Assembly (NCBI GenBank): GCA_018817505.1
Contig: JAHITR010000028.1
Coordinates: 13,736 to 77,735, forward strand
DNA length: 64,000 bases
DNA from: Candidatus Bipolaricaulota bacterium
GTDB lineage: Bacteria > Bipolaricaulota > Bipolaricaulia > UBA7950 > UBA9294
Direction of reading: 5' to 3'
Shown here: positions 24,632-34,704 of the stretch, one piece after another
Position numbering within the stretch: position 1 is the stretch's first letter
Layout: each line of letters opens with the position of its first letter
Notes under the pieces: generated by a model
Told to the model about the DNA's origin: nothing
What the model saw: only the letters and a program-made list of their open reading frames with translations
Databases searched by the model: none
Translations under genes and position numbers: made by a program

Positions 24632-24705
24632 GCAACTGAACTGTCTCGTTGTCAGATCCTGTGCATCCGGCTAGAATGCGTTATCACCGCGCCAAGGAGG
24701 CTGGT

Positions 24706-25398
24706 ATGATTCGAACCAAAAATCTGTGGTTGGTATTGGGTTTGGTCTTGAGCATGTCGCTCATCACGTTTGCCGCTACTCCATTTACGGAAACGTATGT
24801 TGTGGGTGGCACTGCAGTATGGTTGTTCAACAACACCACTGGAGAGACCGCGAACATTCTCCACCTGGAGTTTGCAGAGGACGTTACGCTCAGCGCGACA
24901 CTGGCAATCGGTGGGCAACTTGTCCCAATGGGCCCACTCACAGGCAAAGTCTTTGACTTCGCTGGATCCATCACCAAGGGCGGAACATTCCAGGTTTATG
25001 TGACCCCAGTCACTGCAGTTCCGGCTCTCGCACAGTGGCTCAAGATGGACGCGGTTGGCAATACCCTTCCGATTGGTTCTCCTTATTTCACGTCGCTCTC
25101 GGTTTTGGGACGACTATTTGGAATCGGTATTGTCGCATTGAGGGAAGCCAATCCAGCAGCTCTTGCTGCAGCATTCGAGCAGTTCTTCGCAGACAATGCG
25201 GATTATTTGGCTGGCCTCTCCGAATCGCTTGGCATGTCGCTTGCAGACTCCTTGATGCCCATTATTATGGCGTCTCCTGCAGAAGGCATCGAGAACTTCT
25301 TCAACACCATCATGGGGATGTTGGGAGTCACCAGTCTTGCTGAAGCCGTTACGGGAAGCGTGAACTGGACCGCCTTGTTTGCAGCGCTCGGGATGTAG
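24706..25398 (+). CDS. secreted hypothetical protein
   Basis: ATG at 24706 after an AAGGAGG RBS; signal peptide MIRTKNLWLVLGLVLSMSLITFAATPF. No recognisable domain. Confidence 0.5.
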   Translation: MIRTKNLWLVLGLVLSMSLITFAATPFTETYVVGGTAVWLFNNTTGETANILHLEFAEDVTLSATLAIGGQLVPMGPLTGKVFDFAGSITKGGTFQVYVTPVTAVPALAQWLKMDAVGNTLPIGSPYFTSLSVLGRLFGIGIVALREANPAALAAAFEQFFADNADYLAGLSESLGMSLADSLMPIIMASPAEGIENFFNTIMGMLGVTSLAEAVTGSVNWTALFAALGM

Positions 25399-25426: not shown

Positions 25427-25456
25427 AGAGAAGGGCTTCGGCCCTTCTCTTTTTCT
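25427..25456. terminator. rho-independent terminator hairpin between convergent genes
   Basis: agagaagggc-ttcg-gcccttctct, a perfect 10-bp stem with a 4-nt loop followed by TTTTCT, sitting between the gene ending at 25398 (+) and the one ending at 25472 (-). Confidence 0.65.
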
Positions 25457-25471: not shown

Positions 25472-27742
25472 TTAGGCCGATCGCAGCAATTCCGCGACGG
25501 TGCACGGTTCGAGGGGGTATTTGGTCGCCTGATGGCCCACAGCATGGCTTACAGCACTGGCCACAGCCGCATGAGCAGCCATAAGTGGCACTTCCCCCAA
25601 CCCTTTGGCTCCGAACGGGCCAGCCGAAAACTCGGCTTCAATAAAATCGACGCCCATATCGAGCACCACATCGCGGATCGTGGGTAGCCGATAGGTTGTC
25701 AGCCCGTTCACCATCAGGAACCCGTCCTTCTGGGGAATGTCCTCCATGAGCGCAAATCCTATGCCTTGCGCGACGCCTCCCTGTACCTGGCCCGTGGCCA
25801 ACGTACGATTGAGAATTCGGCCTGAATCGTGGACAGCCACAAAGTCAATGACGTCCGTTTCTCCAGTGACCGTGTCGACCTCAACTTCGGCAATATGGCA
25901 GGCGTACGCATAGACGGGATAGGCGTCTCCCAGGCCCGTCTGCGGATCCCAAGACACCGGTTCTGTCTTGGCCCAGCCTTCGACGGCGGGATCAAGGTTA
26001 TTCAGCCAGAACAAGTTGGCGATTTCGTCCCAACGCTGCCGAATTTCAGAGCGATCCATTCCGTTGCCAAGCGCAACCTCCTCAACACGTTCGCGGAGTT
26101 TCCTGGCTGCATCGAGCACGGCCAGTCCTGACATCATCGTTCCACGCGAAGCAACCGTCGGCCCTGAATCCGGAACGCGTGACGTATCCACAGGCGCCAG
26201 CTGAATTCGCTCGATAGAAACACCGAGCTCTTCTGCAGCAATTTGAAGCAGCGATGTGGTGAGCCCTTGTCCCATTTCCACAGTTCCCACGGCAACGGCA
26301 ACGGAACCGTCAGCTTCTAGCTTCATCGTCGCGCCAGCCTTGTCTAGGAAGGGAGCTTTTCCTCCTAATCCAACACCATACAGAACGCAGGAAATGCCAA
26401 GACCCCGCTTGATGTCGCGGTGTTGCTCATTGAAGGCGGCGATGGCTTCCAGTCGCTGATTCCATTCGACCATCTCTGTCGCACGGGCGAGCGAATCGGC
26501 CATTCCTACACTGGAATCAAGCAGTTGCTCGGTCGACGACCGATCGCCTTCGACAAGCACATTACGTCGTCGTATGTTTGCCCGATCCAAATTCAGCGCC
26601 TCAGCCAGCCGATCCAACTGCGCTTCGTGCGGGAAGATCACTTGCGGGCTTCCGAATCCTCGAAATGCACCATTGGGAACGGTGTTTGTCGCCACTGACT
26701 TAGCATTCACGCGAACATTGGGGATGCGATAGGGGCCTGCTGCCGTGCACAAACTTCGCCACAATACGGCAGAGCTGAGCGTTTGATAGGCACCCGCATT
26801 GAGGATGACATCCACATCAATGGCTGTGATCGTTCCGTCAAACATTGCTCCGGTTCGGTAATGCACACGGGACGGGTGGCGTTTGCTGGTCGTCAATACG
26901 TCTTCTCCGCGATCCAGGACCAGCTTCACAGGACGCCGAGTCTTCCAGGCCATGAGCGCGGCCAAGCTACAGATCTGCGACGGAACGTCTTCCTTGCCAC
27001 CGAATGCTCCTCCTGTCGTGGCCTGGATGACGCGGATCTTGGACATCGGAAGACCGAGCACCACAGAAACGGCCCGCTGCACATAGAATGGACACTGCAT
27101 CGATGCGTAGATGGCCATGCCACCGCCCTCTTCGGGAACAGCAATGGCCCCTTGGGTTTCAATATACGCGTGCTCTTGATAGCCCGTTTCGTAGTCACCC
27201 TCGATGATCACATCTGCTTGGGCAAAACCCGCATCTGCATCGCCCTTGTGCAAGACCATCTCATTAAATAGATTACCGCCCCCCTCAGCCGCAGCTTCAA
27301 GCGAGACGATGACGGGGGAATCAGAGCGAAGTGCCTCCACAGGATCGCTCACCACAGGCAATTCCTCATACGTGATCTTCATGCCCTCGGCTGCTTGCTT
27401 GGCCACTTTGCGGCTCGTTGCCGCGATAAGGGCCACGGGTTCGCCCACGTAGCGAACCACATCGCAAGCAAGCGCTGGCTGGTCATCGTAGATGACGTGA
27501 ACGACATTCTTGCCAGGCACGTCCTCATGGGTCACCAGACAACTCACATCCGGGTGAGAGAATGCTGACGCGAGATCCACGTGCATGACCTTGGCATGCG
27601 GAAGTGGACTGCGGACAACCCATCCATGGAGCATTCCGGGAAACGCGAGATCATCGACGTACTTCGCGTCACCGCGTACTTTGTCTACTGCGTCAGGACG
27701 CGATAGCCCAGCTCCAATCAGGGTTGTCCGCATGTGCGTCAT
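25472..27742 (-). CDS. xanthine dehydrogenase / aldehyde oxidase family molybdopterin-binding large subunit (stand-alone, no FeS or FAD domain)
   Basis: 756 aa. An N-terminal a/b-hammerhead region leads into the Mo-binding domains. Motifs: TTGGAFGGKED and PNGAFRGFGSPQ. The C-terminal motif reads ATGQVQGGVAQGIG where XDH has GQVEGAFVQGLG. Stop/start abutment with the carbamoyltransferase gene ending at 27745. Confidence 0.88.
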   Translation of the reverse strand: MTHMRTTLIGAGLSRPDAVDKVRGDAKYVDDLAFPGMLHGWVVRSPLPHAKVMHVDLASAFSHPDVSCLVTHEDVPGKNVVHVIYDDQPALACDVVRYVGEPVALIAATSRKVAKQAAEGMKITYEELPVVSDPVEALRSDSPVIVSLEAAAEGGGNLFNEMVLHKGDADAGFAQADVIIEGDYETGYQEHAYIETQGAIAVPEEGGGMAIYASMQCPFYVQRAVSVVLGLPMSKIRVIQATTGGAFGGKEDVPSQICSLAALMAWKTRRPVKLVLDRGEDVLTTSKRHPSRVHYRTGAMFDGTITAIDVDVILNAGAYQTLSSAVLWRSLCTAAGPYRIPNVRVNAKSVATNTVPNGAFRGFGSPQVIFPHEAQLDRLAEALNLDRANIRRRNVLVEGDRSSTEQLLDSSVGMADSLARATEMVEWNQRLEAIAAFNEQHRDIKRGLGISCVLYGVGLGGKAPFLDKAGATMKLEADGSVAVAVGTVEMGQGLTTSLLQIAAEELGVSIERIQLAPVDTSRVPDSGPTVASRGTMMSGLAVLDAARKLRERVEEVALGNGMDRSEIRQRWDEIANLFWLNNLDPAVEGWAKTEPVSWDPQTGLGDAYPVYAYACHIAEVEVDTVTGETDVIDFVAVHDSGRILNRTLATGQVQGGVAQGIGFALMEDIPQKDGFLMVNGLTTYRLPTIRDVVLDMGVDFIEAEFSAGPFGAKGLGEVPLMAAHAAVASAVSHAVGHQATKYPLEPCTVAELLRSA

Positions 27743-29897: not shown

Positions 29898-30854
29898 CTA
29901 ATTCTTGGTAATCGTTGTTCCGGCGTTGCCTTCCAGGGCAGCAACTGCCTGATTGAGAGAGGTGATGATTGCCTTCTCCCCGCCCGCTTCGACAAATCGA
30001 ACGGCCGCTCGAACCTTGGGCTCCATGGAGCCCTTGGCAAAGTGGCCCTCTTCCGCATACTTCTTGGCTTCGGCAACAGTCATCTTCGAGAGGGATTTCT
30101 CGTCCGAAGTCTTGTAATTCAACCGTACACTGTCCACATCCGTGAGAACCATGAAGATCGACGCACCCACGTCGACAGCCAAACGTTCTCCTGCCAGATC
30201 CTTGTCAATGACTGCATCGACGCCAACAAGCTTCCCATCCTCGCGGATGACGGGGATGCCTCCGCCGCCGGAGGCAATGACGATCGCCTTGGCTTCCACG
30301 AGATGTCGGATCGAATCCTTCTCATGAATGGAGATCGGATCTGGCGAAGGCACAACTCGGCGCCAGCCACGGCCCGCGTCCTCACGAACGTTGTAGCCCT
30401 TATCCGATTCCAGGGCCTTGGCTTCGGCTTCAGAATAGAAGGGGCCTACGGGCTTGGTTGGATTGGAGAATGCCGGATCCTGCTTGTCTACGACAACCTG
30501 GGTCACGATGGTAGCGACAGGTATGTCGCCTCGACCCTGCTCTGCAAGCAGATTGCCCAGGTTCTGTTGAATCATGAGGCCGATGAACCCCTGCGATTCG
30601 GCCCCCAAAGCAAACAAAGGCATCGGTGCAGCGACCTCTTTGCCCGCTTCGTTTTGAAGCAGCAGGTTGCCCACCTGAGGTCCGTTGCCATGGGTGACCA
30701 CAACACGATACTTGCCGGACTCCACCATGTGTGCCAACTGCACGCACGTAACATGCACATTGGCCATCTGTTCTTCGTATGTGCCCTTCTGTCCCGGTTG
30801 AAGAATCGCATTGCCACCGAGAGCGACTACTACTGTCTTCTTTCCACCATCCAT
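29898..30854 (-). CDS. arcC: carbamate kinase
   Basis: TVVVALGGNA N-terminus and GGGGIPV motif of the amino-acid-kinase family; 318 aa. Confidence 0.9.
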   Translation of the reverse strand: MDGGKKTVVVALGGNAILQPGQKGTYEEQMANVHVTCVQLAHMVESGKYRVVVTHGNGPQVGNLLLQNEAGKEVAAPMPLFALGAESQGFIGLMIQQNLGNLLAEQGRGDIPVATIVTQVVVDKQDPAFSNPTKPVGPFYSEAEAKALESDKGYNVREDAGRGWRRVVPSPDPISIHEKDSIRHLVEAKAIVIASGGGGIPVIREDGKLVGVDAVIDKDLAGERLAVDVGASIFMVLTDVDSVRLNYKTSDEKSLSKMTVAEAKKYAEEGHFAKGSMEPKVRAAVRFVEAGGEKAIITSLNQAVAALEGNAGTTITKN

Positions 30855-30990
30855 TGGATCACCTTTTCGTACTTCAGTTTTTTAATCTATTCGTTCAGAT
30901 TCGCCACAGCAGATCGGTCTACATGCAACGTCACGATCACCCTCGTCACAGAGGATTTTCGCTCACTGATGGTCAAGAGCAACGCCTGCG

Positions 30991-31698
30991 TCATGCCTCC
31001 CAGATCTCTCGCATGCGATCCCAATGCTCGACCGTCTTGGCAAAGGCCGTATCGGCATCGCGTACCACAATGGCACCAAGTATCTCTTGATGAAGATCCA
31101 CCACATGCTGAATGTCATCCACATTCTTCAGGTAGTAATGCCTGGTGAATTCCCGATACACAAGCTGATCCATGGTGTCCAACAAGGGCGTTAGCGCAGC
31201 AGTAATCAGCGCGTTTCCTACGGCATCGGCCAATTCAGTATGGAATCGTTTGTCCGCATCGAAATAGGCATCAAAGTCGTCTTTGGCTGCATTTTCGCGC
31301 ATATCCTCGATGGACTTGCGCAACCGTGCTACCACTGCGCCCGATGCCTTGGACGCAACCAGAGCCGCAATGGGCGGTTCCAGTACGCCCCGTGCTTCCA
31401 TCACTTCGAGACATCCCATTTCGGATTCAATCAGATGGACTGCGGCAGTTTCATCGGAGGAACTGGGCTTACGCATGACGTAGTTGCCGCTTCCCGGACG
31501 GGATTCAATAATCGACATCGCTTGCAGCGCAGACAATGCTTCCCGGATGGATGGCCGACTCACACCCATCAATTCAGCCAGCTCGAATTCTGAGGGCAGT
31601 TTGCTGCTCACTGGATAATCGCCACGTTGAATCGCATCCACGATCTGCTCAGCAGCAATGGCGCTTACCTTGCGAGGTCGAACCTTCTTGAAAGACAT
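30991..31698 (-). CDS. GntR-family transcriptional regulator (FadR/FCD subfamily)
   Basis: N-terminal wHTH (LPSEFELAELMGVSRPSIREAL) and a C-terminal all-helical FCD-like domain. AGGAGG RBS. Confidence 0.85.
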   Translation of the reverse strand: MSFKKVRPRKVSAIAAEQIVDAIQRGDYPVSSKLPSEFELAELMGVSRPSIREALSALQAMSIIESRPGSGNYVMRKPSSSDETAAVHLIESEMGCLEVMEARGVLEPPIAALVASKASGAVVARLRKSIEDMRENAAKDDFDAYFDADKRFHTELADAVGNALITAALTPLLDTMDQLVYREFTRHYYLKNVDDIQHVVDLHQEILGAIVVRDADTAFAKTVEHWDRMREIWEA

Positions 31699-33134: not shown

Positions 33135-33234
33135 AGGATGTCTCGATACCCTTTCAAGATGCAACTTGGAAAGTTGCCAAGCTGCATGATAGCATTACAG
33201 CTACAACTCCACAATCAAATCGAGGTAAAACGCC

Positions 33235-34704
33235 ATGATTGACCTGACGATACACGAAGGCAAGCTTCAGAATACCGTGCGCCGTGCGCGCGAGCGCGGT
33301 ATTGTTATTCCTACGTTCGAGCAGATGAAGAACCCGTCGCTCATTCCCGCAACCGTCAAGGCTGGATTGAAAGCCCACGGCTTGTGGGACCTTCATCCAC
33401 TCAACCTGTATCGCATCACCTGGAAGAACGAGCCCGTTCTTCAAGGCGGCGGCTTTGGCGGCGTCAATTATATCGAATTCCCATCTGCGCTCACGGGCGT
33501 CGACGCTCGCATCATTGCCCTCATCGGCAAGTGGTTCCCAACCGGAGCCCACAAAGTGGGAGCCACATTCGGTTGCCTCGTCCCTCGCTTGGTGACCGGT
33601 CAGTTCGACCCAACGTTCCACAAGGCCGTGTGGCCATCCACAGGAAATTTCTGCCGCGGCGGCGCCTACAACTCGGCACTGCTCGGCTGTGACTCCATTG
33701 CCATCTTGCCCGAGGAGATGTCCAAGGAACGATTTGCATGGTTGTCCAAGGTAGCTGGAGAGGTCATCGCTACACCGGGTTGCGAATCGAATGTTTGGGA
33801 GATTTTTCAGAAGTGCAAAGAGCTGCAAGCGACGCGGGACAACGTCATGATCTTCGACCAATTTGAGGAATTCGGAAACCATCTCTGGCACTACGACGTC
33901 ACTGGACATGCCATGCAAGACGTGCTGAACATCGAGCTCAAGGGCGGCCGATATGCTGGTGTCGTCTTGACCTCAGGATCAGGCGGCACCATGGGCTGTG
34001 GCGATTATCTGAAAGAACAGTATCCCGGCTCCAAGCTCATTGCCTCAGAGGCTCTTCAGTGCCCGACGATGCTTGAGAATGGGTTCGGCGGCCATCGCAT
34101 CGAAGGCATCGGCGACAAGCACATCCCATGGATTCACAACGTTCGGAATACAGACTTCGCGGTCGCCATTGATGACGAGGATCCCATGCACTTGATTCGG
34201 TTGTTCAATGAACCTGAGGGCAAGAAACATCTGCAATCGCTGGGGCTGTCGCCTGCATACGTGGAAGCGCTGGAACAGCTAGGCATCTCTGGCGTGGCCA
34301 ACGTGCTGGCTTCCATCAAATTCGCCAAGTACAACGAGTTGACGAGTTCCGACGTTGTACTCACGGTATTGACCGATTCCATGGAAATGTATGGTACGCG
34401 TCTTCAAGAACTGAATGAGTCCCTGGGGCCCTATACCACGAATCAGGCTGCCATCGATCACAGTCGACACATGCTGGGTCAGAAGACTGACTCCATGCAG
34501 GAATTAGGCTATCGTGATCGAAAGCGCATCCACAACCTGAAGTACTTCACATGGATCGAGCAGATGGGCCGGAGTGTCGCTGAACTCGATCGGCAATGGT
34601 ACGACTACGACGCCTACTGGGGGGGCATTCACAGCATGGTGCCCGCTATTGACAAGTTGATCGTGGAATTCAACGAAGCCGTCGGCCTGGAAGCCAAGCG
34701 CTAA
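33235..34704 (+). CDS. fold-type II (tryptophan-synthase-beta / cysteine-synthase-like) PLP-dependent enzyme, subfamily unknown
   Basis: Candidate PLP-lysine in FPTGAHKVGA. Downstream WPSTGNFCRGGA and LPEEMSKERFAWLSKVAGEV align by eye to the cysteine-synthase core. Long N-terminal extension (about 110 aa); 489 aa total. Confidence 0.7.
   Translation: MIDLTIHEGKLQNTVRRARERGIVIPTFEQMKNPSLIPATVKAGLKAHGLWDLHPLNLYRITWKNEPVLQGGGFGGVNYIEFPSALTGVDARIIALIGKWFPTGAHKVGATFGCLVPRLVTGQFDPTFHKAVWPSTGNFCRGGAYNSALLGCDSIAILPEEMSKERFAWLSKVAGEVIATPGCESNVWEIFQKCKELQATRDNVMIFDQFEEFGNHLWHYDVTGHAMQDVLNIELKGGRYAGVVLTSGSGGTMGCGDYLKEQYPGSKLIASEALQCPTMLENGFGGHRIEGIGDKHIPWIHNVRNTDFAVAIDDEDPMHLIRLFNEPEGKKHLQSLGLSPAYVEALEQLGISGVANVLASIKFAKYNELTSSDVVLTVLTDSMEMYGTRLQELNESLGPYTTNQAAIDHSRHMLGQKTDSMQELGYRDRKRIHNLKYFTWIEQMGRSVAELDRQWYDYDAYWGGIHSMVPAIDKLIVEFNEAVGLEAKR

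Follow-up and report, generated by a model that had tools for sequence, protein, structure and literature searches.

An intact molybdenum subunit of the xanthine dehydrogenase family

The DNA analyzed here, referred to as the window, is a stretch of 64,000 nucleotides from a Candidatus Bipolaricaulota bacterium (contig JAHITR010000028.1). Its minus strand carries at positions 25472-27742 an intact open reading frame (ORF) with an ATG start, encoding a protein of 756 amino acids that belongs to the molybdopterin-binding large subunits of the xanthine dehydrogenase (XDH) family. The gene, called the molybdenum (Mo) gene in the following, is the last of a minus-strand operon comprising a hydantoinase, a GntR/FCD regulator, a carbamate kinase, two carbamoyltransferases and the Mo subunit. 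The product is 100% identical to the NCBI entry MBU1048777.1 (also P0001), which is annotated as 'xanthine dehydrogenase family protein molybdopterin-binding subunit [Candidatus Bipolaricaulota bacterium]'.

A preliminary description of the locus had characterized the protein as an XDH/CoxL-family member with Mo-binding domains only. Pfam bears this out, detecting Ald_Xan_dh_C (5e-27), MoCoBD_1 (2e-87) and MoCoBD_2 (2e-81), i.e. the a/b-hammerhead and the two MoCoBD domains of XDH/CoxL large subunits, and no further domain; neither an iron-sulfur (FeS) nor a flavin adenine dinucleotide (FAD) domain is present in the protein. In a phmmer search against the Protein Data Bank (PDB), human and bovine xanthine oxidoreductase (XOR) were the best matches, aligned over the full length with E values of ~1e-107, and R. 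capsulatus XdhB was found with 1e-96. The fold was confirmed by a Foldseek search with the AlphaFold2 model, in which the Mo chain of bovine xanthine oxidase (chain C) was the top match with a TM score of 0.72. The model has a mean pLDDT of 73, falling below 50 in the cofactor and active-site loops 242-249, 357-365, 457-468, 518-533 and 707-715; with low confidence exactly in the cofactor loops, it is uninformative on the residue located over the Mo.

Among the NCBIfam models, pucD scored best with 542 bits (cutoff 783.65), followed by xdhB (506.5, cutoff 849.5) and XdhA (486.8, cutoff 780), while TIGR03313, the model for XdhD, gave 258 bits. The protein is 31% identical to E. coli XdhA versus 28% to E. 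coli XdhD; both measures place it nearer to XOR, PucD, XdhB and XdhA than to XdhD. With mammalian XOR, R. capsulatus XdhB and B. subtilis PucD it shares the three-domain fold, the active-site triad Glu802/Arg880/Glu1261 and Phe914 (bovine numbering), and the molybdenum cofactor (Moco)-binding motifs FGGKE, AFRGFG, EMGQG and GQVxG. It differs from them in being only ~30% identical and in the replacement of Phe1009, and [2Fe-2S] and FAD modules are neither fused to it nor encoded next to its gene. In view of the missing modules, we refer to this protein and its Bipolaricaulota homologues as orphans.

The predicted catalytic glutamate

The active-site residues Glu802, Arg880 and Glu1261 of bovine XOR correspond to Glu232, Arg310 and Glu730 of the R. 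capsulatus enzyme, and the catalytic base is bovine Glu1261 or R. capsulatus Glu730 (PMC3311054). Bovine Glu1261 is part of the sequence KAVGEPPLF, which in the phmmer alignment pairs unambiguously with KGLGEVPLM of the Mo protein. An alignment of the kind that had been suggested as a check, here with XOR, R. capsulatus XdhB and E. coli XdhA and XdhD, thus identifies E717 as the predicted catalytic Glu (bovine E1261, human E1262, R. capsulatus E730), and this residue is present.

The preliminary description had instead located the catalytic position in the peptide ATGQVQGGVAQGIGFALMED, where it read a change from Glu to Gln. The peptide is found in the 756-aa protein and includes the sequence GQVQGG at residues 651-656, which, as had been claimed, does match GQVEG of human and bovine XOR in the phmmer alignment with the PDB sequences. 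However, the Glu of GQVEG is human E1197 and is not the catalytic base. Residue conservation was assessed in an alignment of 74 relatives drawn from genomes. E717, E251 (bovine Glu802), R329 (bovine Arg880) and the AFRGFG motif are identical in all 74, E251 being kept in the orphans and the outgroup alike, whereas position 654 is Glu in 63, Gln in 10 and Ala in one. Q654 is confined to the sub-clade of the window itself, at an identity of at least 69%. The equivalent of E717 is also a Glu in E. coli XdhA and XdhD, and position 654 is occupied by His in the former and Tyr in the latter. Since the reduction of urate to 2,8-dioxopurine by E. coli XdhD has been demonstrated biochemically (10.1101/2025.05.19.654654), position 654 is naturally variable in active enzymes. 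Judged from the alignment, Q654 is an irrelevant substitution of one sub-clade. That the catalytic Glu is replaced by Gln, and that the protein is hence a reductase, a dehydroxylase or something unusual, is refuted by the alignment: the pairing of GQVQGG with GQVEG speaks for it, but the catalytic Glu lies elsewhere and is kept, most orphans have Glu at position 654, and with E717 intact the proposed non-hydroxylase role loses its basis. For the family as a whole, this amounts to a correction, as the catalytic Glu belongs to the C-terminal GxGE-P motif and not to GQVEG.

At the site of E251, E. coli XdhA, E. coli XdhD and an XdhD-like Mo subunit of 779 amino acids from Bipolaricaulota (Mo779, see below) carry Gln, and the Arg equivalent to Arg880 is missing from all three. 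Phe914 is kept as F363 in the orphan. Phe1009, the sandwiching Phe, is replaced; it aligns with G461/K462 after an insertion of two residues, and no aromatic residue is found nearby. This Phe is absent as well from the FeS-linked outgroup, which is described in the next section.

Iron-sulfur and flavin partner genes

Among the large ORFs of the window, no gene with Fer2/Fer2_2 or FAD_binding_5/CO_deh_flav_C domains was detected. A scan for Cys motifs across all window ORFs of at least 35 amino acids returned nothing credible as an FeS subunit. The lack of an adjoining [2Fe-2S] or FAD gene, as noted in the preliminary description, extends beyond the window: the genes called at contig positions 11702-86068, covering 74 kb of the 92,237-bp source contig in ENA numbering, where the window spans about positions 16710-80709, include neither an FeS nor an FAD subunit, so that no such gene lies just outside the window, the finding that had been named as a refutation. 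An FAD medium subunit is not universal in the family, as it is absent in D. gigas AOR and in clostridial DOPDH.

The locus was compared with 80 species-representative loci and further contigs (loci are numbered with the prefix L), in which partner genes were sought by regular expressions and BLASTP. In ~55 Bipolaricaulota loci with 51-100% identity in the Mo subunit, no FeS or FAD subunit gene was found within 10 kb, the sole exception being L053. The closest relatives outside the Bipolaricaulota (L058-L083), which are 44-47% identical and come from WOR-3, Hydrothermota, Heimdall/Hodarchaeota, Gemmatimonadota and others, present a different picture. Most of them have a Fer2+Fer2_2 small-subunit gene directly downstream of the Mo gene, followed ~1 kb beyond the FeS gene by a FAD_binding_5 subunit gene in those loci whose flank is long enough. 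They share the active-site residues of the orphan, including the replaced Phe1009 region, but unlike the orphan gene, their Mo genes do not lie in a cluster with carbamoyltransferase and carbamate kinase genes. As most relatives from other phyla keep the Mo-FeS-FAD arrangement, the loss of the partners in cis dates to the Bipolaricaulota clade. No FeS or FAD genes were found within the flanks of four Eisenbacteria relatives at 46% identity (L068, L072, L076 and L082), and orphan XOR-type large subunits may be more widespread than the Bipolaricaulota. These four Mo genes are located outside any ureide cluster, and in L082 (Candidatus Eisenbacteria) HdrA-like and HdrB-like genes lie ~4 kb upstream.

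The orphan arrangement is real and conserved. The protein has more than 120 clusters of homologues at an identity of at least 69%. At 151 of the 756 positions, at least 90% conservation was observed in both the orphans and the FeS-linked outgroup, and only six positions are group-specific. One 5-aa insertion, one deletion of ~15 amino acids and the six fixed substitutions separate the orphans from their FeS-linked relatives, which suggests little remodelling of the protein.

The operon and its neighbors

The features of the locus are listed in Table 1. In agreement with the preliminary description, the Mo gene is co-operonic with the ureide cluster. Its start is located 2 nucleotides past the stop codon of the second carbamoyltransferase gene, a GGGAGGG ribosome-binding site lies within the 3' end of the latter, and the genes for ureide and carbamoyl phosphate metabolism are conserved. 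Downstream, the operon likely ends at a GC-rich hairpin of 10 bp, a putative bidirectional terminator placed between the Mo gene and a convergent gene (positions 24649-25398, plus strand). The product of the convergent gene is a conserved protein of 230-250 amino acids that has a hydrophobic segment at the N-terminus and matches no family, and the gene is syntenic with both the Mo gene and ispD across nearly all Bipolaricaulota loci.

Table 1. Features of the Mo gene and its cluster, with positions in the window.
Feature	Position	Strand	Basis
GC-rich hairpin of 10 bp between Mo gene and convergent gene 24649-25398; likely bidirectional terminator	25427..25450	.	intergenic
XDH/XOR-family molybdopterin-binding large subunit, 756 aa	25472..27742	-	Pfam, phmmer, NCBIfam, Foldseek
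E717 codon GAA, predicted catalytic Glu in KGLGEVPLM	25592..25594	-	XOR alignment
GQVQGG motif, residues 651-656	25775..25792	-	XOR alignment
Q654 codon CAG, equivalent to human XOR E1197	25781-25783	-	XOR alignment
GGKAPFL, residues 460-466, aligned with bovine F1009-T1010-V1011-P-F-L	26345..26365	-	XOR alignment
R329 codon in LWRSL, equivalent to bovine Arg880 (purine-binding)	26756..26758	-	XOR alignment
E251 codon in FGGKE, equivalent to bovine Glu802 (purine-binding)	26990..26992	-	XOR alignment
Carbamoyltransferase 2, OTCase/AOTCase-like, ~340 aa	27745..28767	-	Pfam OTCace_N + OTCace
Carbamoyltransferase 1, N-acetylornithine-carbamoyltransferase-like, knotted type, 344 aa	28846..29880	-	NCBIfam NF003384
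Carbamate kinase, 318 aa	29898..30854	-	TIGR00746 arcC, 435.5 bits (above cutoff 358)
GntR/FCD-family transcription regulator	30991..31698	-	Pfam GntR + FCD; kept across loci
D-hydantoinase/dihydropyrimidinase-like cyclic amidohydrolase, HyuA-like, ~452 aa	31776..33134	-	TIGR02033, PDB
Pyridoxal phosphate (PLP) enzyme, fold-type II, CysK/CBS-like, 489 aa, divergent	33235..34704	+	Pfam PALP
NTPase_1 (DUF2478-like P-loop) + PNPOx-like (FMN/F420-type flavin-binding fold) fusion, 328 aa	34706..35692	+	Pfam

The two carbamoyltransferase genes lie in tandem, and both products are of the AOTCase-like, knotted type. Carbamoyltransferase 2 has P. furiosus ornithine carbamoyltransferase (OTCase) and N-acetylornithine carbamoyltransferase as its best PDB matches and is 31.5% identical to E. 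coli YgeW; its homologues in other loci were called as proteins of 340-341 amino acids. Carbamoyltransferase 1 scores 318.9 bits with NF003384, above the cutoff of 288, matches the PDB entries 3m5c (2e-68) and 3q98 (YgeW, 8e-45) and is 33.5% identical to E. coli YgeW. The carbamate kinase is 46% identical to E. coli YqeA. The hydantoinase scores 368.6 bits with TIGR02033 (cutoff 393), matches D-hydantoinases in the PDB with 2e-85 and is 36% identical to E. coli HyuA (1e-82).

The divergently encoded PLP enzyme matches the cysteine synthases of the PDB at only 1e-19 and carries N- and C-terminal extensions. It is 64-89% identical across the Bipolaricaulota clusters, which exceeds the conservation of the Mo subunit. 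No BLAST match was found between this enzyme and E. coli YgeX, of which it is possibly a functional analogue but not an orthologue. The NTPase-PNPOx fusion gene is co-transcribed with the PLP gene and occurs in many, but not all, cluster variants. Two further ORFs, 33154-33918 (minus strand) and 30042-31148 (plus strand), are probably spurious, as they match no family and each lies opposite a real gene, overlapping those of the PLP enzyme and the carbamate kinase, respectively. A search with Rfam for purine, xanthine and Moco riboswitches found none.

Relation to the reductive urate pathway and variants of the cluster

The elucidation of the anaerobic urate/2,8-dioxopurine pathway dates from as late as 2025 and was achieved in Proteobacteria and Firmicutes of the gut. 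Its enzymes are XdhD, YgfK/UacX, SsnA, HyuA, YgeW together with YqeA, YgeY and YgeX, and the literature assigns HyuA, YqeA and YgeW a role in the reductive urate pathway. Genes for a HyuA-type hydantoinase, a YgeW-type carbamoyltransferase and a YqeA-type carbamate kinase lie beside the orphan Mo gene. The window therefore resembles the E. coli ygeW-ygeX-ygeY-hyuA-yqeA-ygfK-ssnA cluster in combining an XDH-family Mo enzyme with HyuA-, YgeW- and YqeA-like genes, and it has the logic of ATP formation via carbamoyl phosphate in common with the E. coli and C. sporogenes clusters. However, the window has two carbamoyltransferases where E. coli has YgeW and the M20 hydrolase YgeY, and the CysK-like PLP enzyme is found at the place of YgeX. 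A literature search did not find a published description of this Bipolaricaulota cluster.

The core cluster is conserved across the Bipolaricaulota, and four types can be distinguished, type A being the arrangement of the window. In type B (L011, L032 and L055), two genes join the cluster (L011:3303-5962, L032:3297-5956), one for an SsnA-like amidohydrolase (229 bits, cutoff 444) and one for a UacX-like reductase with DHO_dh and 2x[4Fe-4S] domains. Both lie upstream of the genes for GntR, carbamate kinase, the two carbamoyltransferases and the orphan Mo subunit. The metagenome-assembled genome (MAG) PPR_0200 has type A (L010) and type B (L032) on two contigs. Type C (L019) is distinguished by genes for an M20 hydrolase and an ABC transporter of the peptide type. 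In type D (L046-L053, e.g. L053:7851-9239 and L046:10059-11789), found in a halophile-associated sub-clade of the Bipolaricaulota, an 8-oxoguanine deaminase gene (NF006055, 615 bits, cutoff 532) is located directly upstream of the Mo gene. Adenine deaminase is encoded downstream, at the end of the cluster, in L046 and L049, and L049 also has an M20 hydrolase gene. No M20 (YgeY) gene is present in the window, its occurrence being in the variants L019 and L049. Taken together and by predicted function, the cluster variants correspond to the set of enzymes that makes up the reductive uric acid/2,8-dioxopurine pathway.

The dihydropyrimidinase-like and OTCase-like genes prompted two other assignments of the cluster, a pyrimidine (Pyd-type) cluster and an arginine/agmatine deiminase cluster. 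Both were rejected as the principal interpretation, since the Mo site is of the purine type and the Mo gene has adenine deaminase, 8-oxoguanine deaminase, SsnA-like and UacX-like genes as neighbors in the variants.

Directly upstream of the Mo gene, two further loci (L033:316-2324 and L036:2295-4330) encode a protein of ~300 amino acids with the DDAH/arginine-deiminase fold and a proline-racemase/DAP-epimerase-like protein of 318 amino acids; in L036 these genes lie between the second carbamoyltransferase gene and the Mo gene. Genes for tungsten-type aldehyde:ferredoxin oxidoreductase (AFOR) were observed on the contigs of L086 (L086:20862-21518) and L011 (L011:3-1637), which fits a ferredoxin-based anaerobic metabolism of these organisms.

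A second Mo operon in the Bipolaricaulota

Elsewhere in the Bipolaricaulota, a canonical operon encodes an FAD subunit (281 aa), an FeS subunit (156 aa) and the Mo subunit Mo779 (L087-L090, e.g. L088:9159-12803; L053:1-1991). Mo779 shares 41.5% identity with E. coli XdhD, contains the active-site insertion with E606 and is likely a urate-to-2,8-dioxopurine reductase. The FeS subunit of this operon is 54% identical to the FeS partner of the closest relative of the orphan that is complete in cis. In L053, the orphan gene and the XdhD-like operon belong to a single purine island, 8 kb apart and with a Bmp-type ABC transporter between them. FAD and FeS genes almost always precede the XdhD-like Mo gene in JGI metagenomes, where the operon sometimes adjoins genes for SsnA-like, OTC-like or the same family of PLP enzymes; in L138, it is next to a gene whose product is 61% identical to the PLP enzyme of the window cluster. 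The scan of these metagenomes with Mo779 revealed no contig carrying the orphan as well. Likewise, no FeS accession was found near MBU1048777.1 or other orphan accessions by proximity within NCBI accession blocks.

Discussion

We consider it probable, at roughly 0.6, that the orphan is a competent XOR/PucD-type purine Mo hydroxylase serving a Bipolaricaulota purine pathway, the electrons leaving via a [2Fe-2S] subunit in trans; what we infer from the locus and its relatives is which substrate is used, in which direction the reaction runs and that the partner is supplied in trans. Since the Moco motifs and the E251/R329/E717 triad are intact, the Mo subunit would be expected to hydroxylate or dehydroxylate a purine ring as XOR does. 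The operon would represent a GntR-regulated Bipolaricaulota version of the anaerobic reductive uric acid/2,8-dioxopurine pathway, and the Mo subunit would most likely feed hypoxanthine, xanthine or a related oxopurine into this pathway or carry it further along. Purines would be converted to ureido intermediates, with the HyuA-like hydantoinase opening the hydantoin ring. The two carbamoyltransferases would phosphorolyse the ureido groups to carbamoyl phosphate, from which the carbamate kinase would form ATP, and the PLP enzyme would probably finish the C3 skeleton.

Because an FeS domain is missing from the protein, and FeS and FAD genes are missing in cis, the electrons are proposed to leave most likely through a [2Fe-2S] (perhaps FAD) subunit in trans, for which the XdhD-like FAD-FeS-Mo operon is the best candidate. 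By our own stoichiometric reckoning from the published pathway, the conversion of hypoxanthine to urate would yield four electrons and that of urate to dihydro-2,8-dioxopurine would consume four, and the two Mo enzymes would therefore be redox-complementary.

Several observations weigh against this interpretation. The exact purine substrate is uncertain, as Phe1009 is replaced and no NCBIfam XDH equivalog cutoff is reached by the Mo protein. The pathway is represented incompletely in the window, where family searches of the ORFs detected no homologue of SsnA or YgfK/UacX and where the PLP enzyme is not YgeX-like. The presence of the orphan and an FeS/FAD operon in the same genome was demonstrated for L053 only, and we know of no precedent for a small subunit shared by Mo subunits that are only ~25% identical. 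In addition, conservation of at least 90% in the FeS-linked outgroup has been relaxed in the orphans at eleven positions, including 333, 342, 498-507, 520, 539, 693, 738 and 747, which could reflect a lost interface.

Such a lost interface would suit a Mo subunit that stands alone, without a dedicated [2Fe-2S] subunit, its electrons passing directly between the pterin face and a redox protein such as a soluble ferredoxin. Possible partners would be the divergently encoded PNPOx-like flavoprotein or the 2x[4Fe-4S] UacX-like reductase of the variant clusters. The absence of cis partners throughout the Bipolaricaulota loci, set against their retention in most relatives from other phyla, is consistent with this alternative, as are the Eisenbacteria flanks. 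The clostridial DOPDH and XdhD, moreover, already do without an FAD subunit, and their electron donor is probably of the ferredoxin type. We nevertheless regard a stand-alone subunit as unlikely. The orphans differ too little from their FeS-linked relatives, FeS small-subunit genes are common in the Bipolaricaulota, and several cluster variants have no PNPOx-like gene. To our knowledge, there is also no characterized XDH-family enzyme without two [2Fe-2S] clusters.

Alternatively, the orphan could be the functional equivalent of XdhD/DOPDH, i.e. a urate dehydroxylase. It is the sole Mo enzyme in the cluster; in type B it has SsnA-like and UacX-like genes beside it, like xdhD in C. difficile and E. 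coli, and in type D the deaminase encoded directly upstream makes urate. The replacement of Phe1009 also recalls the F1009V change in DOPDH (Liu et al.). However, compared with E. coli XdhD and C. sporogenes DOPDH, the orphan has neither the N-terminal FeS domains nor the insertion bearing E606, and in contrast to E. coli XdhD it retains the XOR-type Glu802 and Arg880. Both the sequence identities and the model scores favor XdhA and PucD over XdhD, and a true XdhD orthologue exists elsewhere in the Bipolaricaulota, which makes this assignment rather improbable.

A decaying remnant or non-functional paralogue left behind after the loss of the partner genes would likewise explain their absence in cis, but is highly improbable given the intact reading frame, the cofactor and catalytic motifs that are invariant over relatives of 51-100% identity, the translational coupling in a conserved operon and the large number of close homologue clusters. 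Even less can be said for the change from Glu to Gln dealt with above.

Returning to the XOR/PucD-type hydroxylase, a bolder and doubtful proposal is that the Mo subunit has lost its own [2Fe-2S]/FAD wire and either works alone with ferredoxin or docks on the FeS/FAD module of the XdhD-like urate reductase. If docking were true, the electrons from the oxidation of hypoxanthine or xanthine would pass directly to the reduction of urate and 2,8-dioxopurine, resulting in a redox-balanced purine fermentation in which two carbamoyl phosphates would give two ATP per purine by means of the two carbamoyltransferases. More generally, if both ureido groups of 2,3-diureidopropionate are phosphorolysed, the two carbamoyltransferases would allow the formation of two ATP instead of one.

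The locus thus suggests a rearranged version of the urate pathway in an uncultured and environmentally widespread phylum (Bipolaricaulota/Acetothermia). If the Mo subunit needs no [2Fe-2S] subunit of its own, or uses one in common with a second Mo enzyme, it would represent a new wiring of a molybdenum hydroxylase.

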